Positions 3,827 to 55,781 of a stretch of DNA of 64,000 bases are shown one piece after another. The translations under genes and the position numbers were made by a program. The notes under the pieces are model-generated. The model was not told the origin of the DNA. It saw only the letters and a program-made list of their open reading frames with translations, and did not search any database. The number at the start of each line of letters is the position of its first letter. The first letter of the stretch is position 1. Source of the stretch: Podarcis pityusensis (lineage: Eukaryota); the NCBI GenBank assembly GCA_964106645.2, contig OZ067054.1; one strand, 5' to 3'.

Positions 3827-3855
3827 GCTGCCTCTCCTGGGCTGCGCACAAGCAA

Positions 3856-4311
3856 CGTCAGGGACTGACGGATTGCTGTAATGGTTCTAGGGGTTGCTCG
3901 TGCGTAAGCCGGTGCAAACACCCGGCTGGGTTGCCTGAGTGAACCTTTCCTGTCCGGACAGCCACTCACCCGTGGCTATCTCAGTAGCTGGCAGAATCCG
4001 TCAGTGGGCGTTTCTTAAACTTCTTCCAGCAAAGAAGCTCTTTGACGCCTAGTCTCCTCCTACTCTCTCTGCGCGAAAGCCTTCTGCGCAAGGAGGGCGT
4101 AGGCAGCGGAGGACCCCTACTCTCCCCGCTGGTCCCCGGCAAGGAGTCATGGCACCGCCTCGCCGCTTCCCCCATCTGCCCCCCTTCTCCACTGGTGCTA
4201 CGCTGATTCTCTTCCCCAGAAGATGGGCTGCCTCTCCCACTCCCGGGACGCTCTCCGGAATCCCTCTGGATTTTGCTCTCTCCCCCCGGCACTGATGGCA
4301 GTTCCCTGACA
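3856..4311 (-). repeat. 5' LTR of the Gypsy element (inner boundary 3856 or 3877)
   Basis: Starts TGTCAGGGA at the GC-rich/AT-rich boundary. Ends either TCCCTGACG (3856, inverted match to the start) or CCATTACA (3877). The 3' LTR is not visible to confirm. Confidence 0.65.
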
Positions 4312-9075: not shown

Positions 9076-9775
9076 GAGGAAGAATGGCTCTCCTTGACCT
9101 GATTGTCTTCCTTTCTGAATGACTGCCATAAGTATGGGAACTGAGTGCCAGTCCATTGGAACGACTTCTTAGTGCTTCTTTCCAGCATGTGTGTGTCTTT
9201 TCAAAAGGAAATTACCTCCCTGTTGGTTGGAAATTAAATAAGAAAAAAAAAGTCACGTAGGAACAGCACGAAAGTTGCTCTCTCCTCTGAAAGCTTTAGT
9301 TAGCAGCAGCATTAACAGCTAAATGTGTAATTCTAGTGCAAGTTTGCAGCTGACCACTATGCTCACATTGTTTTTTACAATCTATTTAGCATGGAATCCT
9401 TTGCTTTCACATTTTTTTTAAAAAAAACCTCTGCCTTCTGCATAATGGCAGATTTAACTGTTTTTGGTCTTGCTAAACAGAAGTATCCAATATTGGTTCC
9501 TGTGTCTGGTAATTTTTATCCCAGAGTGAAGACTCGTTGAAATAGATGTGATATGGTTTTATGTGAAAACATTAGTTTCCTGAAGCACTTCACTGTTCTG
9601 GCGCTGTAAAATGAGAAATACAAAACAGATAAAATGATTCCTTTTATTAGATTCTCTTCTGTTGTTGAAGACACATGCATACCTTCCAGTTACTTAGAGC
9701 TCTTTATCAACAGGAAGTTGGTTCAATAAAAGATTAGATGAATTAAAAGTGTTCTGTTTTCTATTTTGCAATTTA

Positions 9776-11779
9776 CCGTATTTTTCGCTCTATAGGACGC
9801 ACTTTTTTCCCTTCAAAAATGAAGGGAAAATGTGTGTGCGTCCTATGGAGCGAAGACGCCATAGCCCCGCGACCCTCTCCCGGCTGGAGAGGTGACGGGC
9901 GGCTATGGCAAGAGCCTCAATAGCCGCCCGTCACCTCTCCAGCCGGGAGATGGTCGTGGGGGGCTGCTTTAGCCCCGCGCATGCTCTCCCAGCTGGAGAG
10001 GTGACGGGCGGCTATGGCAGGAGCTTCTATAGCCGCCCGTCACCTCTCCAGCCGGGAGAGCGCGCGCGGGCACCCCGCGACCCTCTCCCGGCTGGAGAGG
10101 TGACGGGCGGCTATTGAGCCTCTTGCCATAGCCGCCTGTCACCTCTCCAGCCGGGAGAGGGTCGCAGGGCTGTTGGCGAGGTGATGGGCGGCTATAGAAG
10201 CTCCTGCCATAGCCGCCCGTCACCTCTCCAGCCGGGAGAGGGTCGTGGGGGGCTGCTTTAGCCCCGCGCACGCTCTCCCGGCTGGAGAGGTGACGGGCGG
10301 CTATGGCAAGAGCCTCAATAGCCGCCCGTCACCTCTCCAGCCAGCAGAGGGTCGCGGGGGGCTGCTTTAGCCCTGCGCGCGCTCTCCCGGCTGGAGAGGT
10401 GACGGGCGGCTATGGCAGGAGCTTCTATAGCCGCCCGTCACCTCTCCAGCCAGGAGAGGGTCGCGGGGGGCTGCTTTAGCCCCGCGCGCGCTCTCCCGGC
10501 TGGAGAGGTGACGGGCGGCTATGGCAGGAGCTTCTATAGCCGCCCGTCACCTCTCCAGCCGGGAGAGCGCGCGCGGGCACCCCGCGACCCTCTCCCGGCT
10601 GGAGAGGTGACGGGTGGCTATTGAGGCTCTTGCCATAGCCGCCCGTCACCTCTCCAGCCGGGAGAGGGTCGCAGGGCTGCTGGAGAGGTGATGGGCGGCT
10701 ATAGAAGCTCCTGCCATAGCCGCCCGTCACCTCTCCAGCCGGGAGAGGGTTGTGGGGGGCTGCTTTAGCCCCGCGCACGCTCTCCCGGCTGGAGAGGTGA
10801 CGGGCGGCTATGGCAAGAGCCTCAATAGCTGCCCGTCACCTCTCCAGCCAGGAGAGGGTCGCGGGGGGCTGCTTTAGCCCTGCGCGCGCTCTCCCGGCTG
10901 GAGAGGTGACGGGCGGCTATGGCAGGAGCTTCTATAGCCGCCCGTCACCTCTCCAGCCGGGAGAGCGCGCGCGGGCACCCCGCGACCCTCTCCCGGCTGG
11001 AGAGGTGACGGGCGGCTATTGAGGCTCTTGCCATAGCCGCCCGTCACCTCTCCAGCCGGGAGAGCGCGCGCGGGGCTGCTGGAGAGGTGATGGGCGGCTA
11101 TAGAAGCTCCTGCCATAGCCGCCCGTCACCTCTCCAGCCGGGAGAGCGCGTGTGGGGCTGCTGGAGAGGTGACGGGCGGCTATAGAAGCTCCTGCCATAG
11201 CCGCCCGTCACCTCTCCAGCCGGGAGAGGGTCGCGGGGGGCTGCTTTAGCCCCGCGCGCGCTCTCCCGGCTGGAGAGGTGACGGGCGGCTATGGCAAGAG
11301 CCTCAATAGCCGCCCGTCACCTCTCCAGCCAGGAGAGGGTCGCAGGGGGCTGCTTTAGCCCCGCGCGCGCTCTCCCGGCTGGAGAGGTGACGGGCGGCTA
11401 TGGCAGGAGCCTCTCTGCTGCGCCTTTCCGCTGCTCCCTGACCTGCTCTTTGGGGCTGGTGGTGGGCTTCCCCCCGCCAGCCCCAAAGAGCAGGTCGAAA
11501 TGAACCTGAAGCCTGGAGAGCGAGAGGGGTCAGTGCACACCGCCCCCTCTCGCTCTCCAGGCTTCCAAGGTAGCCGCCTGAACGCACCTTAAACGGCACC
11601 TTGTTTTAGAGCGGGAAAACAAGAGGGGGAAAGTTCTCCCCCTCTCTGCGCAGCGCCTCCTGCCACTTCGCTGAAGGGGCGCTGGGCAGAGAGGGGGAGA
11701 AATTTTTTTTCTTGTTCTCCCCCCTCTAAAACAAAGTGCGTCCTATTGTCCGGTGCGTCCTATGGTGCGAAAAATACGG
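9776..11779. mobile_element. Non-autonomous Tc1/mariner-superfamily (Tc2/Kanga-like) DNA transposon with hairpin-array interior
   Basis: TIRs CCGTATTTTTCGCTCTATAGGACGCAC / GTGCGTCCTATGGTGCGAAAAATACGG; TA on both sides (9774-9775, 11780-11781); no transposase. Confidence 0.88.
9875..11410. repeat. Tandem array of 15 complete palindromic units plus one half unit (32-bp arm, 13-nt loop, 32-bp arm)
   Basis: Arm CTCTCCCGGCTGGAGAGGTGACGGGCGGCTAT and its reverse complement flank loops GGCAAGAGCCTCA or GGCAGGAGCTTCT in either orientation. Some units have a shortened left arm. Confidence 0.97.
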
Positions 11780-12744
11780 TACTTGCAATTTATGCACATT
11801 TAACTTGTGCACATTCAGCTTTACACACTGGACAAAAGAAATCAAAAAGAGGTGGAAAGAGACTTCAGCAGTCCCATCCACCACTGAATCCAATTGGAAC
11901 CCAATGTGTTTTGACTATACACAATTTTGGCTTTAGGCAATATCCCCAGAGCATAACCCCTGTGCAAGTTAAGAGTGGCTTGTATGAGAAATTGATTCAA
12001 AAAGTATATGGTCTCAAAACATGGATTCAGTAAGGGTAGATCATATAATTGTTAACAATACCAACAAGGCCATAAATTCATTATTTTACTACATTTAAAG
12101 AGATATTTGACCACATGGAATAAGGAAAGCAAATCTTTAATTTTAGAAAATGAAGATGAATGTAAGACTTTACAAGCATAAGTACCTTCTGCTTTTCATC
12201 AGTTGCCTATATGGCCCCCATCTTCCATCGCTTATATTTTTTAAGCCAGGCAAAATGTTTGCCCTTCTGCCCTCCAATATTAAGCAGCTATCAGATCTTC
12301 TGAGTGCCATTTAGACTATTGTTTATTTTGGCTTATTAAAAGGTAAGAGATTATGTTGGAACATCAGTCATTTTAAAAGGTAATCAACAAAAAGGAAACA
12401 TAGAAACTGAACTAGTCATGGAAATTGGCTTCATAGGCAGGTGATCAGCACTTAAGTAAACAGTGGCTCTTTGTCTTTGTTCCAAAGCTGTTGGAAAAGT
12501 TTTGTCTTTGCAACTGCAAAGAGTGACTGACATTGGGATGTCTTACAAAGCATCAGACACTTATGTGGAAGGAAAAGAAAGTTTGGTGACAGAGGTCTGC
12601 TTAATTCTCAGATAAGCTGGTTAAAGCAGTAGTTATCAAGAGTAGAACAATGTATGTAGCTGCTCCCTACAGATTTTAATATCTGTATGGATCGTAATTG
12701 CTGGCAGACATGGAGTGATTTATGGGAAGCTATTCTGTTGACCA

Positions 12745-25673: not shown

Positions 25674-25893
25674 GCTATCCATCAAAGACCTTTTGAATCA
25701 TGCCTTCTTTGCTGAGGACACTGGACTTAGAGTGGAGCTGGCAGAGGATGATGATGGACTGAATTCCTCCCTGGCTTTGAGACTTTGGGTAGAGGATCCC
25801 AAGAAGCTGAAAGGCAAGCACAAAGATAATGAAGCCCTTGAGTTCAGCTTCAACCTGGAAACAGATGTCCCAGAGGAGGTGGCTTGTGAAATG
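25674..25893 (+). CDS. WNK3: WNK3 exon, kinase end and autoinhibitory/CCT1 domain
   Basis: gccag|[24 protein letters not shown]...[40 protein letters not shown]|gtatgt; 220 nt. Confidence 0.97.
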
Positions 25894-27985
25894 GTATGTA
25901 TTACCATTGCTTCCCTTACCTTTTTTCTTTCTGAGTTGGCAGCATCTCCAGACGCTTCTTATTTGCTTCATTCCAAACATGGGGTTTACTGCACCATTTT
26001 TTTTATTCCGACTTTTACACTTTCCTTTAGAGAGTGTTGCATTTTTATTCTATATTTCTTTGCTACGCTTTTATGTTGCCCAGTCACTGATGCTCTCTGG
26101 GCAATTTATAAGAAGAATAAAACCATAAAACAAGACTATTGCCATGGGCAGCATAGGACCAAGTGTCTTCCGTGGGGGTAAATCTTGACTTCTTTGTTGC
26201 ACACAGTTCAAATATTTGGTTTACAAGGAGAAATATTTTTGCAACCCAGTCCTAAAGAGGATGACACAGAAGCAAATGTATAGGAATGTCTCCCTGAGAA
26301 CTAGGCTAGAACTTTCTCCATGGAGCCACCATTTCTTAAAAAGAAACTGCACAGGAGCAAAGGGGTATACAACCCATCTCCATTCCATGGCCTTGATCCA
26401 AAACTCTCTCTCCACCCATCTTCCCAGCTTCTTTTCAAGAAACAAAAAAAGTCTGTGGGGGGAAAGTGGGGTTCCAGTCACAGAACTCCCACTTAACTTT
26501 AGCTTAATAGTGCACTCCACCCTGCTCAGAGCTGCAAGTTTAGTTTTCTGTGTGCAGGGAGACATTTGGACAGGTAGTAGTGCATTTTACGTACAAGGAA
26601 TAAGGTCACCTAAGGACTGGTCACCTTGCCAATGGGTGAGCATGATTTCTGAAGCTGTGGTTTTATACTCATTTACAGTATGTGAATCGTAAGCCAGCCA
26701 AGAGCTGATGAAGTTTTTGCATTAGTGTAAACAAGTCTTTCTCCCTCCTTTCCTCTTACGGTTTTGTTTCATTTATTCTCCTTTGCCCAAGTTATCTGTT
26801 TAGACTGCAGATTCTTCATTCTGCCTCACTGTTGCCTTGGTTTTGTTTTCACAAAACATTTTCTACACAGCAACCTGACAAGTAACAGCTGATGGCTAAT
26901 GATACTGCAAGGAGTCATAGCAGTGCATCTGCTCATATGTATATGCGCACAATTGACTCCTGCTTAAGCATCACCCACCAGCCAGCTATGAAGTCTCCTA
27001 AATTGTTGTTTCAGGATGCTTTGTTCTGTGTCTTATGAATGGCTCTGTGATGTTGTGCTCTAAAGCTGTTGTTTGGGTCTATTTTCCCTTTATTTTTCAA
27101 CTAGGTTTGGATGTGACTTTGCTAACAGTTGGTAGCTAAGAACCTCCCCTTTGACGGTTCCATTTTAATGCAACACCTGTGCTTGAATTCCTTGTCTTTT
27201 AAACTGGATCACTACTTGAAAATGTAACTGTACGTCCCATCAGTAGAAATCTGTCATGGATAATTCAAGGATTAAGCAAGAGCCACTTGTTACGTGACTG
27301 TTTTCATAATAATTCCTTTTCTGGAGTAGGATGGACAGTATTGTGGTTATATTTATCTTGTTCTAATTAACTTGTTCTAATCAAGTAACATAAATATCAG
27401 AGGTGGGGAATATCTGGCCCATGAGCCAAATGTGGCCCACTAGGCCTCTCTCTCCATCCCTTGAGATTCCCCTAGGCCGTGCCCCTCACTGGCACGGCCT
27501 TGGACCTTACTTGAGTGTTCTTGCTTGGTTGGAATGTGTCCTTGAACTGCAATGATGTCTCTTGTTTTCTGGAGAGGTGTGGCTTTTACATGCCTAGAAC
27601 ATAGTGTACTATCCAAAGGTAAGAGACAGATCTGTTGCTCTGTCCACTTTTACTTCTGTCTCTACCCATTTTCATCACAGTATATTAATGTTGAAGACAG
27701 TCACATAAGTACTAATTAGTATTGATCCAGCCAATGTACTTGGCCTTAACCCATAGCCAAAGTATAGCAGCACTTGAATTTGTGGGTCTGTATCTTGCTT
27801 GCTGTATTGTTTGGCGCTCCATACAATAGGTCCAAGATTGATCTAGTATGTGGTCAATGCAAGTTCTGTTGTAATGGAACCCTGAGTTAATGTGAAATTA
27901 CAGAAAAGCATTGCTAAACACCGATGGATACCAGTTCAGAGGAGCAGAGTTATACTTAATAGAACCGTTCTTTTTTGATGTCCAG

Positions 27986-28274
27986 GTGAAGTCAGGATTC
28001 TTCCACGAAAGTGATTCTAAAGCTGTGGCTAAGTCCATCCGGGATCGTGTCTCCCTGATCAAGAAGACAAGGGAGCGGAGGCAGGTGGGCTACCTGGAGG
28101 AGAGAAGAGACTCTCAAAGCAAGCTGCCAAGTGGGCTGCCATTACTCCAGCCACAGGGTTCATCATTCACCACTCCTTCCCAACAGAGCAGGACGGAGTG
28201 CGAGGAAACAGAGGTGGACCAACATGTCCGACAGCAAATCCTTCAGCAAATGCAGCACAGCTCCTCCATTGCTG
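27986..28274 (+). CDS. WNK3: WNK3 exon, coiled coil and acidic KLHL2/3 degron
   Basis: tccag|[22 protein letters not shown]...[11 protein letters not shown]...SSSIA|gtaatg; 289 nt. Confidence 0.95.
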
Positions 28275-31578: not shown

Positions 31579-31731
31579 GTGCAACAACAGCCAGCAAATG
31601 TGGCCCACCCCAGCGCTTTACCACTAATCCAGAGTCAGCCTTCAACCCTACCCACCCACAGCTTGGCCCCCCCTGTGGTTCCTCAAGCCCAGGCGTCTCC
31701 TGTTGCACTTCAGCAGTTCACACCGAGGCTG
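31579..31731 (+). CDS. WNK3: WNK3 exon, Pro/Gln-rich
   Basis: gttag|VQQQPANVAHPSALPLIQSQPSTLP...QQFTPRL|gtaagg; 153 nt, phase 0/0. Confidence 0.88.
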
Positions 31732-32496
31732 GTAAGGGCTTCCAGGGATAGTCCGACTGACCTGATGGTCTTTTCAAACCGTCATTAAAATAGCATGTCA
31801 CAAGGGCATCTTGGACTCTGAGCCATATGCCTACAAGGGACTACGCCGTGACGAGAGCAGGCAGTCACGTAAAGTGGGAGATAGCGTAGCAGACGTTCTT
31901 GTTGTTGAAAAAGAAATCTGTCCGGATGATGTGTGCCGCTATGGAGAAGTTGCATGGGGCACGTTCGCAGCCTCTGGGTTGTGGTGGGGGGGAACACCCC
32001 CCCAAATGACATCAAATGTTGAACAGGTGATGGAGTTTGCTTCACAAGTTGAAGTTAAACTGCACATTGCAACATGTCCGTATGTAACACAAGCCTGATG
32101 GTCATTTCTTCACTGCAAAGGATTCTCAAGAGGGGGCAATTTGCAATGAAGAAATGACAGAGGAGAAAGAGTGTCACTTTTTTTCTGAAACTTTTACTTC
32201 AATCTGCTCCCCCCCCCCCAGGGGATTTCACAGACATTTTTCTGAAATAAACTTGGTCTGAAAAACTGGCAGAAGAAAAGTGCTTGGTGAGGGAAGGGTT
32301 AAACATCCCCCACCCTGCTGCTTCTGTTCATAAACTGTCTTGTCTTATGAACACTGTGCAGTGGAAGAGGAGACACTGATCTCATGTTTCACCTGCTTGC
32401 ATTTTAACAGGGGGTTTGGTCTTAAGTGCATCACAAAATGATACCTAGTAGGTGCCATGGCACTCCGGCACCCATACCCCATTCAGTGGTCACAAT

Positions 32497-32690
32497 AACA
32501 AGAACATAGGAACATATGGAAGCTGCCTTATGCAGAGTCAGATCATTGTTCCCTCCATCTCAGTAGTGTACACGGCGGCTCTCCAGAGTTTCAGGTGGGT
32601 GTCTCTCTTAGCTCTACCTGGAGATGACAGAGATTGAACTGAGGACCTTCTTCTGTATGCAGAGGAGATGCTCTGCCCCTGGGTTGCGGC
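32497..32690 (-). mobile_element. Squam3-like SINE
   Basis: AACATAGGAACATATGGAAGCTGCCTTATGCAGAGTCAGA tail; head ATTGAACTGAGGACCTTC...TGCTCTGCCCCTG. Confidence 0.6.
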
Positions 32691-33940
32691 CCTGTTCTGT
32701 CAGCATCAGGAGCAGTGGTGGTGGTGCAAACATTTTCATGTACAGAGTATTGCTCTTTTATCTCAAAAGTATGCATCATTACATGCAAATGTGTGCAATG
32801 GTACGCTGAACTAACTGCTTTAGGAGGGATAAGCGGCAGAAGAAAGACATTGCTCAACCCTTTCTCTACCCATTGCTTTCATACATTTGTAGGTAAAGGT
32901 AGCTTAGCTTTGAACGCTCGGAAACTGATATCTCTGCAACAAGTTGTGTGCAGCAAGTGGAGAAACGCACGTTGCATAAAAATTAATTGTGCAGAAAGGC
33001 TCTTGCGCAAGGCTGAGGAATCAGCTTGATAGGTGGGGCTGTGCTGGTTGGGTCATGGTGGACCTCACAAGGTGCTATACTTTATTTACAAAAGTTCTGC
33101 TTTGGGAGAGGATGGAAGAACTCCACATTCCAGCAACAAGAAGTGACTCTTGCCTCTGAGGAGTTCTCACACTTGAGATACATTAGTCACAATTAACCCC
33201 AAAATGGTCGCTTTTGTAAATAAATTATACCATTTACTTTACCATCTTGTGGGAAAAACCACTTTGTAATTTTTGTGTGTGTGTGGAATTGATGCTGTCC
33301 TCCTTTTCTTAAGGCAGCTGCCTGAGCAGGCGTGCTTTACTCTGAATATCTGATCCCATGACAGAGTTGTAGGAGTTTTTATATGATGCAGTGGAGGCTG
33401 AAGCTTGAATGATAAATTATGAGCTCTGTTTTAAGCCGAACTGAATGCACGCTAGGAAATGCTTGTAGAATGAAGCAGTGGCAGTCGGCTCCCTGTAGAA
33501 TGTATTCATGGAATGGACCAACCTTCATGAAAAATAGTTCTTCCTCAGGGACCCTAAACATAAGAATTCAATCCATCATCCCACTCCTTCATTCTAGTTG
33601 GAACATAGCTAAGTTAAATACTGGCTGTCCAGCTACTGAAATACTTTTGAAATTGCAAAGAAGTGCTAGTGGTTCTTTGCTACCCTTCATATAGCTTACA
33701 GATAAGGTGGTTATTTTGGAGCACTGAAAGTGTATTGCCAAGGTGATGGAATTTTACAAGCTGCTGTTTATTAACTTATACAAAATCCCTTGAATCTTGA
33801 TGTTCCTTCTACAAGTTCTTTTTGTTATAGTCTTCTCAGAGTGATTCATCTGTTGGTGGTAATGATGAGGTTCCTTATAGTAAGATTTGGAGAAAGGACG
33901 ATCAGTTTAACCACTTTTTAAAATACCTTCTTCTCACCAG

Positions 33941-36808
33941 GCTCCAGATGCACAGGTGTCCTACAGTGCAGAAGGGCAGACATTGGATGGATCCATCATG
34001 GGAGTCCCTCAGCAGATCTTGACAGCCACCTCCCCTCAGACTATCCCTGCTCCACAGATGGTGAACCAACATCTGCCAGCTAACATACCGTTAACCTCTG
34101 CTGCTAGAATCGGTAGTCAGGCTCCAGCTGCTGCAGGATCAATGGAACTGGAGCATGCTTCTGCCAGCTTTGTGCCTGCTGGTCATTCACCTGTGCTACA
34201 GGGGCAGCCTTCAGTTCAGTTTGTCAACAATATGCCAAGTTTAGCACAGGCTCTTCCTAACCCTTCAGCTCTGCCGTCAGTTCCACAGGGAGTTACCTCC
34301 ATTCAACAACCCCAGCAAGTTCCCCAGCAGGTATCAGCTGCACAGCAGCCCCAGCAGGTGGTGTCAGTTCAACAGATGCCCCAGCAAGTTCCCCAGCAGG
34401 TGGCACCCATGCAGCAGCCCCAGCAAACTGTTCAGCAGGTGGCATCTACACAGCAGGCTCCTCAACACATGGTGTCAATGCAGCAGGTTCCACAGCAGAT
34501 GGCATCCATGCAGCAGCCCCAGCAAATTCCCCAGCAGGTGGCACCCATGCAGCAGCCCCAGCAAACTGTTCAGCAGGTGGCATCTACACAGCAGGCTCCT
34601 CAACACATGGTGTCAATGCAGCAGGTTCCACAGCAGATGGCATCCATGCAGCAGCCCCAGCAAGTTCCCCAGCAGGTGGCACCCTTGCAGCAGCCCCAGC
34701 AAGTTCCCCAGCAGGTGGGATCCATGCAGCAGCCCCAGCAAGTTCCCCAGCAGGTGGCACCCATGCAGCAGCCCCAGCAAGTTCCCCAGCAGGTGGCACC
34801 CATGCAGCAGCCCCAGCAAGTTCCCCAGCAGGTGGCACCCATGCAGCAGACCCAGCAAGTTCCCCAGCAGGTGGCACCCATGCAGCAGACCCAGCAAGTT
34901 CCCCAGCAGGTGACAGTGCAGCAAGTTCCCCAGCAGGTGGCACCCATGCAGCAGCCCCAGCAAATTGCCCAGCAAGTGGCACCCATGCAACAGCCCCAAC
35001 AAGTTCCCCAGCAGGTGGCACCCATGCATCAGCCCCAGCAAATTGCCCAGCAAGTGGCACCCATGCAACAGCCCCAACAAGTTCCCCAGCAGGCAATGTC
35101 CATGCAGCAGCCCCAGCATGTTCCTCAGCAAGCAACATCCATGCAGTCCCAGCACGTTCCTCAGCAGTTGGTGGCTATGCAACAGCCCCAGCAAGTTCCC
35201 CAGCAGGTGGCACCTGTGCAGCAGCCCCAGCAAGTTCCATCCATGCAGCAGCCCCAGCAAATGGCCTCTATTCAACAGCTTCAGCAGGCAGCAGTAATGC
35301 AGCAGTCTCAGCATATTCCCCCACAAGTGGGCTCCATTCAGCAATCTCCACAAATTCCCCAGCAGGTTGGTTCCATTCAGCAGTCCCAGCAGGTTGTGCC
35401 AGTACATCAGGTCTCTGCCGTGCCACAGCCGATTCAACTTCCACAGTGCCCACAGTATCCCACGCTGCCCCTCAATGCTTCGGCGCAGCCTTCCCTGGTG
35501 CAGCAAGAGCAGCAAGCTATTCAGATGCACCAATCCACAGATCAACATCCTTGTGTAAGGCAACAGATGTTATACCACCTGCCCCTACAGCAGCAGAAAC
35601 AAGAACAGTTTCTTTTCCAGGGCAGCTCTACGGAGCAGCTGGCAGCTGTCACTCAACAAGTTGTAGAAAAGCCGCAGCAGGCCGAGCTCTCGGGTTCAAC
35701 TCCAGAGCAGGTGGCTTATCCCATCCAGTACCACCTGCAAGCCCCAGAACAGCTAATATATCAAACGCAGCCCCCCCACCAGCTCCCAGCTTCAGAGCAG
35801 CTGACACCTCAAGTGCAACCCACCAACCAGCTCCAGGCACCAGAGCAAGCACCATGTCAGATGCGTGTCGCTTACACAATGCAAGGCTCCGATCAGCCTC
35901 CGTGCACAGAGCAACTGGTCTATGCAGTCCCTGGAGTGTATCCAGGACAGCCCTTGGACCAACCGACATATCCAATGCAGTCTTTTTACCAAGGACAGGC
36001 AGCTTTCGTAAACCAGCCAGCGCCATATCTAATTCCGCCTCCAGAGATCCAGCAGGCTCACTTAGCAGTACAGGTTGCAGATCAACGGAGTTTTGCCATG
36101 CGCTCTCCTGAGAAATCGTTATATACGGTGCAGGATAGTGGCACTGGCTGCATGGAGCAGCAAGTTTGCCTAGGGCAACCAGTGGAGGCCCATGCTTATC
36201 CCTCTGAGCAGCTCCAGCCTGAGCAATCAACATATCTGATCCAGCAGGATTCCGGCATGGGGCACCAGCAACTGCAGCCTCCTCAGGCGGGACACAAGTT
36301 TGCAGAAGGCCAACACCCAGGATCGCAGGCCCCTTTTGTCCCATCTCAGCCATCTTTTATCCCACAAATGCAGCCACAGGCTCCCTATCAAGAGTTCAAC
36401 CAGCATGCTATTCCTCAGCCCCTCAACGCCACAGTCCCACAGTCTGCCCCAAACGCACCACAGACGGTGTCTTCCATGCCAGAACAGTCAGAGCCAGCTT
36501 ATGCAAGGCAACAGCCGCCAGAACTGCCCGGGCACCTGCATGGTCCTAGCCTCCTCCAGCAACCTCCAGCATTTCAGCCAGCTGATAATAACCAACCATT
36601 TACAGCTTCCTCAGTACAGTCAGCATATGTGCAGCAGCAGCAGCTGCCAATGTGCCAGGGGTCCGTGTTGCCTGCAGAGCCAGTGGTCCAGAAGCAGGTC
36701 CCTTCAACGAGTTCTGGAGCAGCATCAGCAGCCCTGAACCAGCAAGCATCACTTAGCGCAGGGACACAGCCACACCAAGAACACGTTCAAGGACAAGACA
36801 TTTCACAG
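33941..36808 (+). CDS. WNK3: WNK3 giant Gln/Pro-rich exon (956 codons)
   Basis: ttcttctcaccag|APDAQVSYS...QGQDISQ|gtatat; 2868 nt without a stop, phase 0/0, in frame with both neighbours. Composition switches to intron-like after 36808. Confidence 0.85.
34305..35395 (+). repeat. Coding tandem repeat, 39-bp unit (QQPQQVPQQVAPM), with a 138-bp duplication
   Basis: Unit CCCCAGCAAGTTCCCCAGCAGGTGGCACCCATGCAGCAG; a 46-aa block is repeated at 34391 and 34529. Confidence 0.95.
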
Positions 36809-37066
36809 GTATATCATTTGTTTTTTTTAAAAAAAATCCTGTTTCCCAGGATTCCCGCCCCCTTCAAAAGAAAAGAGAGTCACAACAAAATGGCTAAGTA
36901 TTTTGACTTTGTAATGGTGATTGCATACTTTAGGGCCAAATTGGATGAGGTGTTCCATGCTTCTGTATCTGGCTGTCAGGGCTCTCCCCAGGTCATGCCC
37001 CTCCACACTGGCCTGGCTTGCTTGAGTGTGTTTGCGGGGCTGCAAAGCGCCTTTGAGCTGTGGTAC

Positions 37067-37622
37067 GATCATGGATTGGCTGGATGCAGAGGAATGGTGG
37101 GAGGCACCAGCCGAGGAACCCCCCCCTCCAAGGGAAGAGGATTCAGAGCCAGGAGCTTGGTGGTGGGTGGCCAGAGAGAGAAGAGGGTGAAGCAGAAGAG
37201 GTAACAGGGTTTAGTGAGAAGGGAGAGACTGTGGCAGAGAGCAGTCCAGAGGTAGAGATAGAAATGGGATGGGGAGGAATGGGGCCAGAAGGCAGAGGGG
37301 CTGGCTGCAGAAGAAGCCAGACAGTCTCCCCATTCTGGTGTGACCAGCTCCTCTCCCTGCTGGTCTCCTTAGAACACGCAGAGAAATCAAGAGGGCAGGG
37401 CAGAGCTGGGTTGTGCGCAGACGCCACCTGAGACTGAGTGGGAAAGACCCTGGAGAGGAGGAGTCCCAGTGGACACTGGGAAGGCAGGCATCTTCAGCCC
37501 TCACAACTGCTTCATTGGGGCAAGACCTTGAAAGAGTTGCTGAGACCACAGGCCAGACTTGTGGTTTGTTTCCATTGATTTATTGTTTTGTTGCTGCCCT
37601 ATGCCTGACTCCAGCCCTGACA
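37067..37622 (+). mobile_element. Probable solo LTR (left boundary uncertain)
   Basis: Purine-rich body ending CCCTGACA, organised like the LTR at 3856-4311; no clear TSD. Confidence 0.4.
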
Positions 37623-38170
37623 GATGTGCCCCTTGCTTCCTGAATGAAGAGTAGAGAGGTGTGGGTTGAAACCCAGAGTGTAGCCTTCCTGTGTACCAAG
37701 GCAAGAGTTGCATCTGTTGGTCTGCCCGCTTTTGCCCATCCCGCTTTTGGCACACAGGCCCTGGAAGGCAGCCCAGGAGGAAATGCTGCTCTCCGGCAGA
37801 AAAAGCTTTCTCTCCCCTACACAGTCCCCACAGCTTGGGTTTGTTTAGCATGGGATGGTGGTGACATTTTCTTCAGCGCAAACAAGACTCAACCAGAAAC
37901 TCTTGTTCTTTCGAGAGGGTGCAGAGTTAACCAAAAGTGTTTCCTGTTTTGTGTTTAATTTCTTGCTAATCAGATTTGTGTGCTTCTAATCTGCTTCACA
38001 AGTGGTGTTTTTGACAACTGGCAGGCATAGCCTTCCATGAGTGCTACGTGCAAGACTGGGTTTAAACAATGGAAAAATTGTTCTAATCCAGTAGCCCTGT
38101 CAGGAAAAAGAGGTCAACCCTAGTCCCTCCTTTCTTTGTCTATGGTCACACCTCTGCCAACCTGATGGTT

Positions 38171-38296
38171 GCCTTGTAGCTCAGTCAGCAGAGCATGAGA
38201 CTCTTAATCCCGGGGTTGTGCCCCACATTTGGCAAAAGATTCCTGCATTGCAGGGGGTTGGACTAGATGACCCTTGTGGTCCCAATTCTATGATTT
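38171..38296 (+). mobile_element. tRNA-Lys(CTT)-derived SINE with CR1 3' tail
   Basis: TAGCTCAGTCAGCAGAGCATGAGACTCTTAATCCCGGGGTTGTG (T-arm deleted), followed by AAGATTCCTGCATTGCAGGGGGTTGGACTAGATGACCC. Confidence 0.75.
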
Positions 38297-40017
38297 TCTT
38301 CCTGCTTCATCTTAGCTTGCCCTGCTTTGTCCAGCCACACTGTCTTTCAACCAGCAGTGTTCATCCAGCATTTTTCTCCACCCCTTTCTGCCCCATTTAA
38401 TACAGCTTCGACTGCCTTGTTTCAATAGTCCTCTCCTTTTGCTGGTCACTTTCTTCCTTAATTCCCTGTCTCTTTTCCTCTGCTTCTACCATCTGCTGTT
38501 CTTTTAGGTTTCTGTGACTGCTTCCACACTGGACATGTACTGCTTCCTTACTCATGCAAGATGGCATGAACAAAACATTTTCCTCTCACTTTTTCCCTGT
38601 TCCACTTCCTTTTTTATGAGCTTAGAAAACGCAACTTTTTCTCAACTTTTTTCGTAGCTGCATACAGTACATTCCCTGGGCATTGGTGGGCTACTGTGCT
38701 GTTATTCTGGCCTATAGTGACCTGTATAGATTGTCCCACCCCTTTCCTAGATTGCTGTAGCTACTTTTTCTCTCTCTGGTTTGTTTCTCCTCTCTAGGAA
38801 TTAGTTCTATCAGTCTGACCTTTCTCTTTCCAAAAAGTGTTGCACTCTTTCTCCCACTCCTCCTTACATTGCAGCAATGGGGTGACATGATAAGGAGTAC
38901 CGTGAAGGAGGAGGTAGTCTTCCCTCCCCCCTGGTCCCAATGACCCCCCTCTCAGTAACTGGAGTTGGGAAAAGAGGGACTCAGAACAAAGTGTTAGGGT
39001 CTGCCTTCAAGAAGTGTGGAGGCTGAGTTGCTCTTCAACTTTCAGCTGAAAGCAGTACCAAAATGATGAGGGATTGCTAAATCATCCATACCTGGAAGCA
39101 CCTTTTATCTCTGTTCATTGCAGACTCTTTCCCGTTCTTTTGGCTACCTGAGCCTCTTGTTCCTTAGCTTCATCATCTCCCGAGACCTCTTCTTGCTCAT
39201 CTTGCCTACTGTGACAAGATAGCTCTTAGGGTTAGCACACAGTTTCAGTTCTAGACAACCTGATTTCTCATTTCTGAGGAGAAACTATCTGAACATCCCC
39301 TGTTGCCTATTTTGTGTTCTCAGCACTTTCCTTGTTGCAGTTGTGTCTGTGGATAAAGGTCTCTCCATTCTCCTGCATATCTAATCATGCCACCAATGTC
39401 ATTTGTAGCTATTTGTGACACCTTCAAACTGCGTACTGGATTATAGACTGTAATCTAGTGATCTAGCACAATGCTGTGTCTATTCCATAAAAAGGAAAAA
39501 TGTTGTGGATAAACTAGGTTTAACCTCCTTAGAATGTTTTATCCTTTCCGTTATGCATACAAGAGGTGGTCATTCTAATGATCTTTAGAGATTGTATGTC
39601 TTTAACTGTAGAGTAACTTGCCTCAGCTTTCCACTTTAATAACTTTTATTTTCACTTTTTCTCCTGGGATTGCAAATAGCAAGCATACATTTCTGAGACT
39701 GTAAATATTTTCCTAACCATGGATGGGAAATATTTTCAAAGCAAATGCAAAGCTTGGAATAGAATCTCGAGAGCTAGATATTGTTCAAGGTTATCTTTAG
39801 AACTGGTGCTGAATGTTACTAGAAGAAGAAGAAGGGGGGGGGGAGCAGATCCAGGTCCTGAGGATGTCAGCCTGGAAAAGTACGATTGTGTTTCATTTCA
39901 AGCACACAAATTGTTTGCATTTTGTGTAATTACTTAATTTGCTTAGTATCGCTGCATCCAAGTGAGGATGGCAAATGCAGAACCAACATAATTAATTTTC
40001 TCCCTCCCTATTTCTAG

Positions 40018-40076
40018 GCTTCCATCTTGGTACCAGAACAACAGCCATCAGTTCAAAAGCAGGATTTTGTTCAAGG
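40018..40076 (+). CDS. WNK3: WNK3 small exon
   Basis: ttctag|ASILVPEQQPSVQKQDFVQG|gtgagt; 59 nt. Phase 0 to 2 is required to join the 41525 exon. Confidence 0.85.
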
Positions 40077-41524
40077 GTGAGTCTGCTCCAAGGTTAATTT
40101 TTTTGGCCTGGTGGAAGGCAGGAATGCTAAGTGCATGGAGATCAAAACTAGTGAACATCTCCATTTTCCATACAGAGAAGACAAGCTCAAGGCTTGCAGA
40201 GGGGTGGGAAGGGGGGAGTTCACTTCAGCCAGAAGAAAGCTGGCAGAGTTGTGGTAGGAAGAAACATTATTGAAGCATATGTACCCAAAGATAGGAACTC
40301 TCATCATTCTCCCCCTGCTAAGAACTTCAGTTAAATTTAGGGAAGTAAATACTTAGGATAACTGTTAGGAATTTTCTGATCAAAGCAGTAGTGTGCTAGA
40401 AAGTTAATTTATGGATTTCACTGGAAGACTTTAGGTTTGGGATTCCCAGAATTTGCTAATCCTCAATGCCAGTGCCAAACCTTTTGCTAAATGAGATGTG
40501 AACTAAATGACACCTTCCCTAGCCCCCCCTCACAGCCTAAGGTCACCAGTTGAAAAGCTTTCCCCACATCCATCTCTCCCTCCTCCCCAGTCATGTTACC
40601 AGCCGCTTGCTGCAGGGTCCAGCCCTGTGCCTTATTACCCTAAGGTAAGGACTAGTCCTGGTCTCCCCATAACTCCCCCTTCTGTACATCTGCAAAGGTG
40701 CCATCTATCCATTAGCTTGCTCTGCATGCCACCCCAAGCACCACTAAGACAAAGTAAAGAGAACAATAGTAAGAAAATGTTTGTGAAGTGCTTTTCCTGA
40801 GTGTTTGCAGTACTTGAGAAGACACTTCGTACACAACTACGAAGTTGTGTGGGAGCCAGTTCTCCATAGCTTTGCTACTTCCATTTTGTTGCAGTAACCT
40901 TTAGTGCAGTAATCTGGGCCTTTCTCACCTGATCATTGCCTAGAGGACAGTGGATGGAAGGGTGGGCATTGTTGGTCCCATCTATGTGGCACTGGGATGT
41001 TGAACATGATCACAGTGGCCTAGAAAGAAGTCAGGGAAATCCCGCTGCCCCACAGATAGAGTAATGTATACAATAGGGGGACCATCAACAGCCCTGTAAG
41101 TTAAGCTAATATTCTCCCCATTACAGATGTAGTGTGTCTGTCTCTCTCTGTGTAGCTGAGACTGAGAGAAATGTGGTTTGTCCATGTAAATTTCACCCAT
41201 TTGAATTTAAGTGTTTAACCATCAATGGTAGTGTGACAAAATAAATGCATATACCATAGACAGCAATGTCTGCCTATGGTACCTAGCCACCTTCAACTCA
41301 CTTAAAAAGTAGTGTTTGTCACCAGCCCTACTTTGATCTACGGTATTTCCCTATTCAAATATTGAAGCTGCTGTGAGGTAATGCAAGCCCTCATTTGGGC
41401 TAGTTGATAAAAGGAAAACAAAGATTTACTTAATGTTCAGAAGTTACAGAGAGCAAGGCTTCCCCTCAGAAGTGTCTCGGTGTGCTCCTTCTAAGAGTGC
41501 TCACCAATTTTCCTATCTTTTAAG

Positions 41525-41672
41525 ACCGATTCCTGATGTAGCCATTCAGAAGGAAGGTGCCAATGGATGTGACCTTCCAAGTGGAAATGGCAAACAAGAC
41601 AAAAGCAAGCAACGGAGAGCTTCATGTGCCCGAACAGAGAAGGGAACCAAATTTCAGCTCACTGTACTGCAG
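41525..41672 (+). CDS. WNK3: WNK3 exon
   Basis: ttaag|PIPDVA...[31 protein letters not shown]|gtatgt; 148 nt. Confidence 0.92.
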
Positions 41673-43018
41673 GTATGTATGTTTTAACAATCAAGGCTAA
41701 ACCATGCATAGCTCCAGAACAGAATTCAATGGAATAATATCTGTCTGGAAAATAGATTTGAGGTTGTTTATCTGGGCTCTACTACCACCGTTGTACAAAT
41801 TCCCATTTGCAAGCAATGCTTTAATGACTATAAATTCTGCAACTATGTGTGGAATTCAATTGGAGTATGTGTCCAGAGAATGAGATCCACTAATGCAATG
41901 AGACTTTTCCACCCTCTCCTTACCCTGAATGACCCCAAACCTTTTCTGGGTTTCCCCCCAACCCCCCCCAGCAGATTTAAATGGTGCAGGAGGGTGCACA
42001 GGGGTAGGAGAGGATGGAAAGTTCCATTGTACGGGGACTCCTCATTCTGCACATGCAACAACTTAGTTGAATCCTGCCCTTGGACTCCAGATAATCTGGT
42101 TAATATATGTTAAGAAGAAGCCCTTTGGCTCAGTCAATTCTTATATTCACAGATCATATTTCAGGGGGCACCTCAATATGGGGAAACAGAGTTTCCCCAT
42201 ATTGCTAGTTGTTCTTTTAACACCATCTTTGAGCAGAAGAGCACTTTTATGACTTCTATAATCTCAGATTTGCCTAGAATCAGTCTTTGTGGATGGTAAA
42301 TTGTGGGATGAATTTTGAGACTTGCAAAATGGACTGATTAAAACAATTGATTTATCCAATGTTGTACACAATTAATGTTTCTACCCTGGTTTGTGTGCCC
42401 GGTGTCAGAGATAGCAGATGACTTCACAGTTTTTTGTGTATCTTTTTAGCTTAAGTTTATTCTTGCAGCTTCACAAGATCAGAAAGGAATGGGTTCAGGT
42501 CAGTTGCTTTTAAAACAACATAATGTGTGAACAGGATCTAGAATCCATTCCAAATGTTATTGAAGGCAAGTATTTGGAATCAGGTCATAACTGGAGGGAA
42601 AAATTTGAATATAGTCTTTGGGTGAAGAAGTATATTTTCAAGCCTCCAGCAAATGCTTATTAAGTCTTTGGATGGAATATTTGAAACTGAGGTCACTGAA
42701 TCCCAAAGACCATCAAGTGCTGGCATTTTCAACAGATGCCGGATTCTACAGAAATGAATCCTATCTATATTCATTATCATACTATAGGACAACATATAAT
42801 GTCTACATAATTATCTATTCAAAACAACAACAAAGATAATAGGTAGTGTTAAACCTTTTTAGTTATTGGTGCTTTGCCACTTCAGCCTTTGGACAAGTGC
42901 TGTCATTTTACAGGATTGGTGTCACACCAGTCAGGTAGAGGTGATCTTTGTTTGCCAAGAATTGAAGAAGAAGCAGGTTCTGACTCTGTCTAATTACTCA
43001 ACCCCCACCTTCAATCAG

Positions 43019-43135
43019 GTGTCAACATCGGGGGACAACACGGTGGAGTGCCAGCTTGAGACTCATAACAACAAGATGGTCACATTTAAATTTGATGTTG
43101 ATGGAGATGCTCCGGAAGACATTGCTGACTACATG
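43019..43135 (+). CDS. WNK3: WNK3 exon, CCT2 domain; GC donor
   Basis: atcag|[39 protein letters not shown]|gcaagt; 117 nt. Confidence 0.93.
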
Positions 43136-44511
43136 GCAAGTTTCATAGAGCCTGCTTTCCACTAGAGATTTCTTGTTCAAATGCTTGGGTTGCTCAGGAC
43201 AATGTGCAATAGCCTTGTGTCTTGTTCATAGCATTTCTCAAGATATGGAAACCCCTGAGGTCTAACCTTAGTCTTCCACTTGACATGCCCTTGACTTGCA
43301 CAGATTATTTTGAGAACTAGCTTTGAGAGGCTTTGGGGCAAGATCCTAAAAATGGGGCTGCTGAAGGAATCAATGAAAACTGGGTTTGGAAGTTTGACTA
43401 AACTCAGCCTCCCAGGCACTGTCACCTTTGGAAACGTTGCGTGTAAGGACTTAAAGACAAACATTTTAAAAATCCTTAAACCATTTGAACTAACCTTCTA
43501 AGTTATTATTTCAGGTTTGCTGCAGACTCCTGCAGGACCATCTGTTGTTCCTTGGGTTAATAAGATTCAAAATGGTGTTTTAGCCCTAAACATTAGAAAC
43601 TCGGGGTGGGGGGGGAGTGCAGGTTGGATAAATTCATTTAATTCAATGGAAGAAGGTCTTGCCTCCTTATAGACACTCCCCCCCTTTTCCTATTTCCTTC
43701 ATTGCACAAGTTGTGTTTTTATATCTCGTTTATAATTTTATCCATTTCATTCACTTCTGAATTTTTTACTTTTCTTTGACTTTATCATCAAAAGCTCCTT
43801 GTATTATACTTACATTATTTTGTTGTTAATGTTTGTTTTTCTCTCGTGTGTATTGTCTGCTTTTGTTGTTCAGTAAAAATTAACTTTTTAAAAAATAAGC
43901 GTCCAAAGACTTTGACAATAGTACACATTTCTTCTTTAGACATAAAATTTGCTGCCTGATCCTATACATCTTTTAACTGGGGTAGGGGGTTTGTATAGCC
44001 CCGCTCAAGGTGTTGTGGATTACAAATCCCATCAACCCTGATCCTTTGTCACTGGCCATGCTATCTTGCAGGCATCACTCAGGTAATGGATTCCATTGGA
44101 TGCACTGAGGCTAAACCCCACCCAGGGAGCCATTGGGTGCTTCTGGGGGTGGGGCCAGGACCTGTGAGCAGATTTTGAGGGAAACTTTCTTCCTGTGGTC
44201 GGCTTCTGGATTATAATTAGGTCTGGCGCCTGATTTTGGCATTTTGCAAAATAATATGTTTAGAAAAAGGAATACTTAAGTATAGTAATACCATTTTAGA
44301 ATGAGTATGTTCCTCCCCTATTACTGGGGAAACTTGAGATGGCTTCTTGCTACATAGACACTGGCACAATTTCAATTGTTTTGGCTATATATGAGTTTTC
44401 CTTCAGCCAAACAATATTATTCGTTTGGAAAGCTAAGATTTCTCTGATTGTATAAAATGTAATAGAAGATGCACTTACATCTTCTACCCTGTTTTTTCCT
44501 TCCCATGTTAG

Positions 44512-44661
44512 GTTGAAGATGACTTTGTGTTGGAAAATGAGAAAGAGAAATTTGTTGATGAACTGAAGGCTATTGTTTGCCAGGCCCAGGACATCATCCG
44601 CAGTCTTCCGGTTGAAGAGCGAACTACTGGCACAGAGTCTACACCTTCTGATCTTACCCAA
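44512..44661 (+). CDS. WNK3: WNK3 exon, CCT2 C-terminal half
   Basis: gttag|VEDDFVLENEKEKFVDELKAIV...SDLTQ|gtaagt; 150 nt. Confidence 0.93.
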
Positions 44662-44759
44662 GTAAGTTATGTTTGTTTAGTGATACCACTTTTCTGGGAA
44701 AGTGTGTGCTTGTATTGGGAAATTCCCTTTTTATATTTATCTATTCATTTTTAATTCAG

Positions 44760-44811
44760 ACAGGATCTTCTGAACAAGTTCAGATAAACCCAGCATCTAC
44801 TCAAACTGGCA
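44760..44811 (+). CDS. WNK3: WNK3 small exon
   Basis: ttcag|TGSSEQVQINPASTQTG|gtaagt; 52 nt after a 98-nt intron. Confidence 0.9.
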
Positions 44812-46131
44812 GTAAGTAACTATTTTAAAACATTTAACATTGAAGGTCAAACAAAAAAACAAAACAAAACCACCCTCCTTAAAGGTGAAAGTGATGAAAA
44901 TAGTGGATATTTTGGCAGGAACTAAAGCAGATTTGTTCCTTGTCAGTTAGGCTGCCTTTTGTCTCTCAAATCTTCTTATGGTAGTTCACGTCTTAGGTGG
45001 AGTCATCTTGGCACATATAATTGATTCTCTGCAATGGTCCTGATAACTGTATGGGAAGATTGTAAAGATTTTGAGTGACATTATTCAAGGCTGAAAGAAG
45101 ACATTTAGAAATCTTCTATCAATTAAGCAGTATATACATTTAAAATAAATAAATAAACAAGTTCTTAATGAGTATAGCCAAATTGGCATCAATTCTGGGG
45201 GTGGTTTGATGTAGCTGAGCAAAGAAAAAGGTCTGGATTTTACCTTTAGGAAACTAGAATCCAAATTCCTTCATTGTGTTTGGTAGTGACTCCTTACATT
45301 ATCCTAAAGCAGGTGAAGTTACAAGCCAGCTTCCATACTTATAGAAGGATAGCCAATTAGGTGCCCTCCAGATGCCATTGGACTACATGACCAAGTTGCC
45401 TGGGGCTGATGGGACTGGAGTAGGATCATAACTAGAGGGCATCATGCTGTCTACCGCTAACTTACAGTTGGTGATGTGGTTTGAAGTGTCTGGAAATCTA
45501 GCCAGTTCAAAATTTCCTTTTTGAGGTTGACTACAAAAATACCCCTATGTTTATGTAGCAAATATCACGTGTGGTGTCATCAGTTGTGAAATGTGGCGTG
45601 CACATTTAAATGGCTGAGTTTTCATTTAAGAAATACAGAAGCAATGGTTGAAAGAGGGAAAGATGCTCTCTCTTGTGTATGGGATTTTTCGTAGTGGAAA
45701 GTGAAATGCACACAGTCAACTGTGTTCCTTTATGTGATACGAAGGCAGCTACTTACCATGATGGACTACTTTTCAAGCACATCAGAAGAGTCCAACATTT
45801 TACTTGGCTACTCTTTGTTCCATTAACACTGAATGATCTCTTTTTCTCTGATTCTGGTATGACCTTTGTATCAACAGAACAATGCCAGTGGTATGTTTGT
45901 TTTTTCCCCACAAGTTGAGCATCTGTCTGCTCTTGATTTGTTATTTCTTCCTGCTCCTGGAGGACTGGAACACTTTGGCCAGGATCCAACAAACCATAGT
46001 TCCGTGCAATTAAGGGGAACTTTGGGTGTGTTTCTGAAAGAGGAGTCTTCCTTACCACATGTCAGAGCAATTCTGAAACTGAGGAGAACCTTTCAAAAGC
46101 AGACTGTGATATAGCATAGGGATCAGCTGTT

Positions 46132-54442: not shown

Positions 54443-55170
54443 GTGAGTACTGACAGGGAGATTGGCTGGGGTTGAAATCTTTTCTTCCTGCAACAAGAAA
54501 TCTATAGCTATGCTAGATGGCTGTACAAACCCATTTGCTAGCTTAATGGGTGCTGGCAAGTGAGAGGTAAGTTTCCTTTTCAGGCATACTATCCCAACAT
54601 TTTGTCCTGGATCAGTTTTATTAGAGTGCTTGATGAATATCTGGTATCTGGGAGTTACCAGTGCTGGGAGAGGCACAGGGTGGGAGTTAGATGATATTTT
54701 TACAGCAACAGTTTGCCTATATTAATACAGAACTGAACTTTACTAGGCCCTACTTGGGCTAAGAATTGGAAATGTCCTATTTGGAGAAAGGCATTGTAAA
54801 ATTGTTGAGCAGTTACATATAACCTCCTAACCTGTCATTGACTATTTTAACCTGACAAATTGATCTTTTTTTAAAATAGGCACTTCATTGAGCTTGGAGA
54901 TTTGAATGTGCAACCCTCAGCAAGAAAGCAATCTCTAAAACAGAGATAGCTAACCAGGAGCCCTGCAGATGTTGTTGGACTCCCAGCTCCCACCAACCCC
55001 AGCCAGGATGGCCAGTGGTCCAGATGATGGGCGTTGGTAGTCCAACAATACGTTGGCTACCCCTGCTCTTAAAATATTTAAGGTTCGACTTGTATAGTGC
55101 AAGACTCCCCCTTGCCATTATTCAGACACCACTTTCTTCTGTCCCTTCCCCACCCACTTCTTTTGTTCAG

Positions 55171-55399
55171 GAGATGTCCCCGGAGGCTTCATTTCCTGAG
55201 AACCCTGTGGCCTGTCCTGCTTCAGCATCAAGTGGTGGAGCTGTGCACCTGCATGCAGGAGGTGGATATTTTGGCCTAAGCTTTACTTGCCCTAGTCTCA
55301 AAAACCCTATTAGCAAGAAATCCTGGACTCGCAAATTAAAAAGCTGGGCATACAGGCTACGGCAGACCAGCTTTTTCAAGAAATCAAAAGTCCGGCAAG
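55171..55399 (+). CDS. WNK3: WNK3 exon, long (18b-like) form; probable short form ends at 55261
   Basis: ttcag|EMSPEASF...[47 protein letters not shown]|gtagtg; 229 nt. Confidence 0.88.
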
Positions 55400-55781
55400 G
55401 TAGTGTGCTTACAGTCAGGGATCTAGACTAGGTAACATCTGTTTTGATTTATTTAAGTATGGTTGTTTTATTTTCTCTCTCCCCCCTTTTTTAGCATTTC
55501 CTGCCTCTTCCATTTATACATTTTTGCTCCTTTACTCATTTGTGTAACATTTCACCCACCACCACTTTGTTTTCCAGTTTGATTAACCAGTTTTTTCATT
55601 CCACATAGAAGTGTAGGTCTTTAGATACAAAAAATAAAATAAAAAGCCTACATGTATAATAGAATCATTCTTTTTATAATGCAATGTTGCTTTTTAGTAT
55701 TATCAGGGTCCCAGCTTTGCCTGACTGTGTTCTTTTTCTTTGTGTTCGTTTTCGACAAAAATAAAATAAATTACACAACAG

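Follow-up and report, generated by a model that had tools for sequence, protein, structure and literature searches.

In a wall lizard, the tail of WNK3, a kinase that senses cell shrinkage, contains a Gln/Pro-rich coding exon of 956 codons that canonical human WNK3 does not possess. The locus, analysed here as a stretch of 64,000 nucleotides from Podarcis pityusensis (GenBank assembly GCA_964106645.2, contig OZ067054.1; hereafter, the window), raises the questions of how old this exon is, whether it is a switchable cassette or a standing part of the protein, and what so long a segment might do in a kinase of a family whose tails are known to condense.

Gene identity and architecture of the giant exon

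The window carries the WNK3 gene of a wall lizard of the genus Podarcis, with most exons matching the Podarcis lilfordi model P0002 at 94-100 % and the 3' part of the giant exon matching it at 99 %. The kinase is 98 % identical to human WNK3 and approximately 90 % identical to other WNKs, and the gene has both the WNK3-type activation segment in the kinase domain and the two CCT-like domains, CCTL1 and CCTL2; Pfam recognizes Pkinase, OSR1_C and CCTL2_WNK in P0002. The first coding exon is located upstream of the window, and the giant exon lies between the OSR1_C (CCTL1) and CCTL2 domains (Table 1).

A first-pass annotation, made from the letters of the window, had described a stop-free phase-0/0 exon of 2868 nt that could be skipped without a frameshift, and translation confirms this: 956 codons with no stop stand between an AG and a GT, the other five frames across 33941-36808 have 13-44 stops each, and skipping preserves the frame because both neighbouring exons (31579-31731 and 40018-40076) adjoin the exon in phase 0. 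A shifted frame within the exon is also open, over 616 codons. The share of coding sequence, put at about 40 % in that annotation, comes to 2868 of 6660 nt (43 %) for the 19 exons placed, a sum to which two or three further short exons, at approximately 55.2 and 63.2 kb, would have to be added. The encoded residues are 28.1 % Gln, 14.4 % Pro and only approximately 5 % Asp, Glu, Lys and Arg together, and the C content of the DNA is 33.8 % vs 25.7 % in the other exons.

Three blocks can be distinguished. The 5' block (residues 1-120) is an ordinary low-complexity stretch; the middle block (residues 121-499) has no charged residue and no Phe, Tyr or Trp, its core being a tandem repeat with a 39-nt (13-aa) unit in approximately 16 copies, near-identical in DNA, at 34619-35238 within an array at 34378-35260; and the 3' block (residues 500-956) is 21 % Gln and 14 % Pro. 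No Pfam family matches the giant exon, and Rfam gives no match within the window. That the open frame is a chance product of a CAG-rich repeat was considered and rejected, since the 3' block is free of repeats, is conserved and is spliced.

Table 1. Features of the WNK3 locus around the giant exon (positions within the window)
Feature	Position	Strand	Remarks
Giant phase-0/0 WNK3 coding exon	33941..36808	+	956 aa; 10th coding exon by count
5' block, aa 1-120, conserved exon start	33941..34300	+	Aligns with mammals and amphibians
Middle block, aa 121-499, Gln-rich array	34301..35437	+	42 % Gln
3' block, aa 500-956, Gln/Pro-rich	35438..36808	+	17 of the 18 exon tyrosines
Splice acceptor, pyrimidine-rich, AG end	33921..33940	+	Sequence
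Splice donor GT, without consensus +5 G	36809..36814	+	Sequence; used in spliced contigs
Upstream WNK3 exon, 153 nt, 51 aa, phase 0/0	31579..31731	+	Present in human WNK3
Downstream WNK3 exon, 59 nt, phase-0 start	40018..40076	+	Present in human WNK3
Two exons for CCTL1, first CCT-like domain (Pfam OSR1_C)	25674..28274	+	PF12202, P0002 residues 421-484
Two exons for the CCTL2 domain	43019..44661	+	PF24889, P0002 residues 1677-1747; spliced in contigs

Evidence for splicing in lizards

Besides its AG/GT ends and open frame, the exon has its 3' splice joint represented in transcripts. Four of 24 listed runs were mapped to the stretch 35390-45000, which begins downstream of the upstream exon, and contigs of two of them (X1 and X6, transcript assemblies from two organisms that are close relatives) join 36808 to 40018 with GT..AG ends and extend into the exons that follow. 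One X1 contig of 2080 nt, with a depth of 28.7, runs unbroken from within the exon across four downstream exons, which suggests that skipping, if it occurs in this sample at all, is a minor form. Thus, the exon was intact and spliced onward in both of the examined runs that cover WNK3 exons. Rare variants drop out of contigs, a further 271 loose ends lie beyond those listed, and the RNA status of the runs was guessed for 14 rows, none being on record as RNA. Two raw-read runs, X23 and X24, of which approximately 12 % was read, had zero reads on any WNK3 exon and are uninformative. The acceptor junction 31731-33941, which falls outside the mapped stretch, is based on sequence and public models, and the exon boundaries are the same in the WNK3 models of P. 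lilfordi and P. muralis. Based on the two contig sets and these annotations, the exon is probably near-constitutive in lizards.

Age and distribution outside placental mammals

The first-pass annotation had supposed the exon to be either lineage-specific or lost by mammals, and this did not survive comparison with other vertebrates: orthologs occupy the same site in turtles, amphibians, lungfish, monotremes and one marsupial, and also occur in a squirrel and, in part, an armadillo. A search with the downstream region returned 662 proteins, the best 120 of which were analysed. Between two fixed anchors, the spacing is 735-838 aa in most turtle models and 913-915 aa in platypus and echidna vs approximately 200 aa in human models and the majority of placental ones, and the turtle, platypus and squirrel sequences align with the lizard exon from end to end. 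The 5' block matches squirrel in BLASTP at E=1e-9 and stands well above 200 shuffles (z=13.2 for squirrel and 17.0 for platypus), as does the 3' block (z=10.0 and 12.8, respectively). When an HMM was made of the exon start in 11 non-mammal tetrapods, squirrel X1/X2, armadillo, platypus and echidna scored 47-52 bits and two frogs 22-29 bits; the model matches nothing in human, squirrel X3/X4, marsupial, owl, Xenopus or lungfish, nor in any of seven long ray-finned proteins.

When the platypus exon is compared with whole linkers, the marsupial (z=20.8), caecilian (16.1), newt (11.0), turtle (9.1), lungfish (8.9) and three frogs (4.4-8.5) score above eight control linkers from other WNKs (-0.2 to 3.4), while the alligator and emu linkers are low (1.3 and 0.3) and the inserts of four ray-finned fish have no sequence likeness to it (z <=1.5). 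Long Gln- or Pro-rich linkers of 575-1495 aa are nonetheless found in the named WNK3 of alligator, emu, newt, frogs, caecilian and lungfish, and likewise in that of reedfish, gar, eel, catfish, pipefish and salmon, the human linker being 219 aa by the same measure. Given the z and HMM results, sequence orthology extends to tetrapods and lungfish, and the ray-finned fish share position and composition only. Judged by sequence, the exon is at least as old as the lobe-finned vertebrates; by position, it is probably as old as the bony vertebrates. Separately, the spotted gar model X4 (P0178) carries a long Gln-rich 10-aa repeat after CCTL2, at residues ~1120-2000, and this is a second, independent site of a Gln array.

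The exon in placental mammals

In human WNK3 (P0094, 1800 aa), the equivalents of the two flanking exons are joined directly, and the giant exon has no significant match in that protein (best E=0.5); alignment thereby upholds what the first-pass annotation had stated, namely that the exon is absent from the canonical human protein and that its flanks are adjacent there. Among the best 120 of the 662 proteins, one of 42 placental-type models contains it. The thirteen-lined ground squirrel has a 727-aa insert that sits exactly at the lizard position with both ends alignable. In the annotation of this species, models X1 and X2 have the exon and X3 and X4, cleanly joined, do not, with an anchor spacing of 929 aa in X2 vs 202 aa in X3 and X4. 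The squirrel exon (residues 680-1406 of XP_040137195.2) has 727 open codons and is 44 % identical to platypus over its whole length, and given that identity an annotation artefact was judged unlikely, the long form being known from annotated models. With the squirrel exon as query, 7995 scored candidates yielded itself, platypus, echidna (43 % over the whole) and a short armadillo piece only. Over 67 aa, the armadillo piece shares 79 % identity with squirrel, as against 63 and 73 % for the two preceding exons; the ESM Atlas gave no usable match for this piece or for the 3' block.

That a rodent has 727 open codons here, and a xenarthran a conserved piece, would imply coding constraint deep into placental evolution. 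Most likely, it is the short placental WNK3 that is derived and the long form that is ancestral, the reverse of the earlier reading. The notion of an equally long exon constitutive across vertebrates, mammals included, stands as regards wide distribution but not as regards placentals, in which the exon is not constitutive. It might further be proposed that human and mouse retain, in the corresponding intron, a coding version absent from annotation, such that some cell type makes an overlooked WNK3 of approximately 2,500 residues, although we consider this very unlikely.

Is the exon a regulated cassette?

The first-pass annotation had called the exon switchable. On this view it would be an ancient regulated cassette, in lizards too, switched by tissue or state so that the long and the short WNK3 differ in their condensation threshold. 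The exon is symmetric, and its donor has no +5 G; the squirrel models come with (X1 and X2) and without (X3 and X4) the exon; and the protein P0224 is the same as the coho salmon model P0228 except that 1269 aa are missing here, the two sides being cleanly joined, while P0187 and spotted gar X4 are likewise short there. Additionally, in the accessible part of PMC3365125, the same region of WNK1 has the tissue-specific exons 8b, HSN2, 9, 11 and 12. However, no clean skip occurs among the sauropsid and monotreme models compared, the 2080-nt X1 contig is unbroken from the exon through four downstream exons, and P0224 and P0187 may be prediction errors.

A clean skip was sought among 166 WNK3-type proteins with both anchors, and none of the 13 short non-placental models proved clean: either both exon ends were kept, or the next exon was missing too and intron was read through. 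As skip evidence, P0049, P0050, P0051, P0057, P0058, P0059, P0061, P0062, P0077 and P0173 were rejected, as were five short alligator models, on the grounds that the next exon was missing and intron was read, that a repeat fragment was kept or that both exon ends were kept. Clusters are represented in part (for the largest Podarcis cluster, by 15 of 52 members), so a skip model could be hidden in them. The squirrel has both kinds of model and ray-finned fish have skip-type proteins, but no skip form was seen in lizards among the models and contigs compared, and we regard switching in lizards as rather unlikely. About equally doubtful, though a possibility to be kept in mind, is a switch as old as bony vertebrates that sets the crowding threshold of WNK3, by default on in reptiles and amphibians, switchable in fish and near-silenced in placentals, some of which, such as the hibernating ground squirrel, would still have it intact and use it.

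The neighbouring 51-aa exon (31579-31731) is itself variable, as the platypus X2 and alligator X2 models (P0056 and P0315) skip it and keep the giant exon; an Anolis carolinensis model also does without it, making it a second optional exon in the region.

Variation and constraint among squamates

A search with the 3' block gave 47 matches among 4554 candidate proteins, all of them squamate WNK3-type models, from 24 species. In 26 models from 25 squamate species, the 3' block is 441-467 aa with 53-99 % identity, and the middle block varies between 106 and 807 aa, part of which variation may be gene-model error inside the repeat; the 5' block is 58-100 % identical in squamates. Within the exon, the X1 contig and the window differ at 23 sites, of which 13 are replacement and 10 are silent changes, and both listed insertions are 3 nt. 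For the 3' block, pN/pS is 0.39 (p=0.024), rising to 0.45-0.54 (p=0.05-0.11) when transitions are weighted, a weak signal of constraint. Two dozen isoforms are modelled for Podarcis muralis (P0003-P0026), with linkers of 909-1251 aa that apparently differ inside the repeat; these differences may reflect allelic repeat length or artefacts of spliced alignment. In an owl model (P0198), the conserved exon start is followed by a Thr/Ser/Asp/Trp repeat with 3 % Gln, which may be genuine or may stem from a frame error where GC content is high.

Such latitude would suit an inert flexible spacer between the CCT-like domains, in which only the open frame and the low charge matter and which placentals could have lost cheaply. 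A Gln array whose length changes by slippage (hence the 106-807 aa middle block), units near-identical at the DNA level, a different, non-Gln repeat in the owl model, the weak pN/pS signal and 41 of 42 placental models without the exon are all as a spacer would have them. Nevertheless, the 3' block has kept its length and 53-99 % identity in squamates and aligns with mammals, the 5' piece shared by squirrel and armadillo is more conserved than neighbouring exons, and a 727-codon frame is still open in a rodent, and we hold an inert spacer to be unlikely.

Disorder, prion-like composition and condensation

Composition is consistent with an intrinsically disordered exon region, and structure prediction gives this weak support, as AlphaFold2, run on the single sequence, predicts neither helices nor strands and assigns a pLDDT below 50 to all 956 residues. 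With regard to the prion-like character proposed by the first-pass annotation, the exon contains at least 60 residues that are Q/N-rich and charge-poor. In a PLAAC-style scan, which used approximate frequencies, its best 60-aa window reaches 32.4, and 378 of 897 windows exceed 10, nearly all in the middle block; on the same footing, the maximum for human WNK3 is 7.5, and that for squirrel is 9.6 in both its long and its short form. By these scores, the term fits the Gln repeat of the sauropsid middle block but not the mammalian version, squirrel scoring 9.6 with or without the exon. For the tail as a whole, Gln is 16.7 % with the exon and 8.4 % without it (human, 8.0 %), and charged residues are 14.6 % with it and 21.5 % without it (human WNK3, 21.2 %).

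As far as the accessible part of 10.1101/2022.01.10.475707 extends, rat WNK1 residues 480-1242, which cover the region of the exon, condense weakly and the distal tail condenses strongly, while shortening of the rat WNK1 tail leads to a higher threshold and blunted SPAK/OSR1 activation. The expectation that a disordered-type Gln/Pro exon would fall in a part of the tail that condenses is thus borne out by comparison with rat WNK1. The same portion of that report describes human WNK3 as osmotically responsive and found in WNK1 condensates; since human WNK3 joins condensates without the exon, the exon is dispensable for condensation as such. Because it raises Gln and lowers charge in the tail, it may instead strengthen crowding-driven condensation. 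Additionally, CCTL1 and CCTL2 bind TSC22D adaptors, based on the available part of PMC12266122.

The reading that we favour, and consider somewhat more probable than its competitors taken together, is that the exon is an ancestral disordered part of the WNK3 tail, forms part of the usual lizard protein, would strengthen condensation and is mostly skipped by placentals. In mechanistic terms, it would add approximately 950 uncharged, Gln/Pro-rich, disordered residues between CCTL1 and CCTL2, thereby doubling the Gln share of the tail; the long uncharged chain and the Tyr-bearing segments of the 3' block would engage in weak multivalent contacts; and, compared with the short form, long WNK3 would need less shrinkage or a lower concentration to condense and to activate SPAK/OSR1. 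In reptiles, a Gln tandem repeat would have grown within the exon, its length free to change, and placentals would have come mostly to skip the exon, as may be reflected in human models that are without it, an armadillo that retains a 5' piece and a ground squirrel in which it appears optional.

A different function can be imagined, namely a docking or degradation module of short motifs for WW or SH3 partners, comparable to the proline-rich alternative exons of WNK1. The 3' block is indeed Pro-rich and contains Tyr, and the accessible text of 10.1101/2022.01.10.475707 has proline-rich motifs of WNK1 binding SH3 and WW partners. Yet [L/P]PxY and RFxV-type motifs are both missing from the exon in the window, and [L/P]PxY is found nowhere in the squirrel or platypus proteins and is scattered and unconserved in other species, which leaves docking as a most improbable account compared with a condensation-strengthening tail.

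Relation to known systems

The exon is already contained in public WNK3 models, including XP_053227395.1 of Podarcis raffonei, XP_028922817.1 of platypus and XP_040137195.2 of thirteen-lined ground squirrel, all products of automatic annotation. A literature search, conducted mostly outside subscription journals, found nothing on the exon or on its distribution, history or function. Nothing on it appears in the accessible part of a 2026 review (PMC13686953), WNK3 is absent from the nine supplementary files searched for a PhyloCSF study (PMC6886504), and in the available supplements of a squirrel brain study (PMC7848201) WNK3 occurs in the expression table only. The exon is thus known as annotation.

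Its nearest parallels are the optional WNK1 exons 8b, HSN2, 9, 11 and 12 (PMC3365125; PMC7606576, each as far as accessible). Like the WNK1 exons of PMC3365125, it is large and in-frame, encodes a probably disordered stretch after the first CCT-like domain and appears optional in some species; however, the WNK1 exons, in the accessible part of that account, are tissue-regulated in mammals, whereas the WNK3 exon is apparently the main form in reptiles and mostly absent in placentals. No sequence likeness was found to the other-WNK proteins compared, which may or may not include HSN2, eight linkers giving z <=3.4. The exon-start HMM matched one of 59 proteins with other-WNK motifs, an emu model that is itself named WNK3-like.

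The WNK C-terminal domain is condensation-prone and, in Drosophila WNK, has Gln-rich prion-like tracts, and the lizard exon likewise provides a Gln-rich low-complexity tract in the proximal tail. According to the same source (10.1101/2022.01.10.475707, accessible part), Gln gave way to Pro/Ser early in vertebrates, an analysis that used WNK1 where there were several paralogs. Among 12 long-form non-placental proteins, the WNK3 tail is 12-24 % Gln in 11, the emu having 7.9 % and human WNK3 8.0 %. A class of large internal exons is known that encode disordered regions and depend on SRSF3. The WNK3 exon resembles these in being longer than 1 kb, C-rich and low-complexity in its product, but differs in being Gln-rich and not Pro/Ser-rich.

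Other features of the locus

Within the first WNK3 intron, the minus strand at 868-3886 has gag-, protease- and reverse transcriptase/RNase H-like open reading frames, recognized by eye as a Ty3/gypsy-type LTR retrotransposon. At 9774-11782, terminal inverted repeats of approximately 25 bp surround GC-rich, self-complementary tandem units of 49, 81 and 109 bp, likely a non-autonomous DNA transposon. A short, high-copy, SINE-like repeat at 38200-38290 attracted thousands of partial read fits in all four runs mapped. Further downstream, the exon near 55.2 kb (55170-55400) has an open in-frame extension, and squirrel X1 and X2 differ by 47 aa. Exons 18 and 22 are the known alternative exons of human WNK3, and the pattern is reminiscent of the long form of exon 18.

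Implications

The published WNK3 work examined here was done with the short protein of mammals. On the premise that the long form is ancestral, human WNK3 would be a derived deletion that has lost approximately one-third of the tail, and nature would provide matched pairs, in the form of squirrel long and short proteins and lizard repeats of different length, that permit a direct test of how tail length and Gln content relate to the osmotic threshold of a crowding sensor. Should a coding remnant survive in human, it would have been missed by exome studies of WNK3. More broadly, the long Gln-rich tails of WNK3 qualify the published view in which Gln-richness was given up early by the WNK tails of vertebrates.
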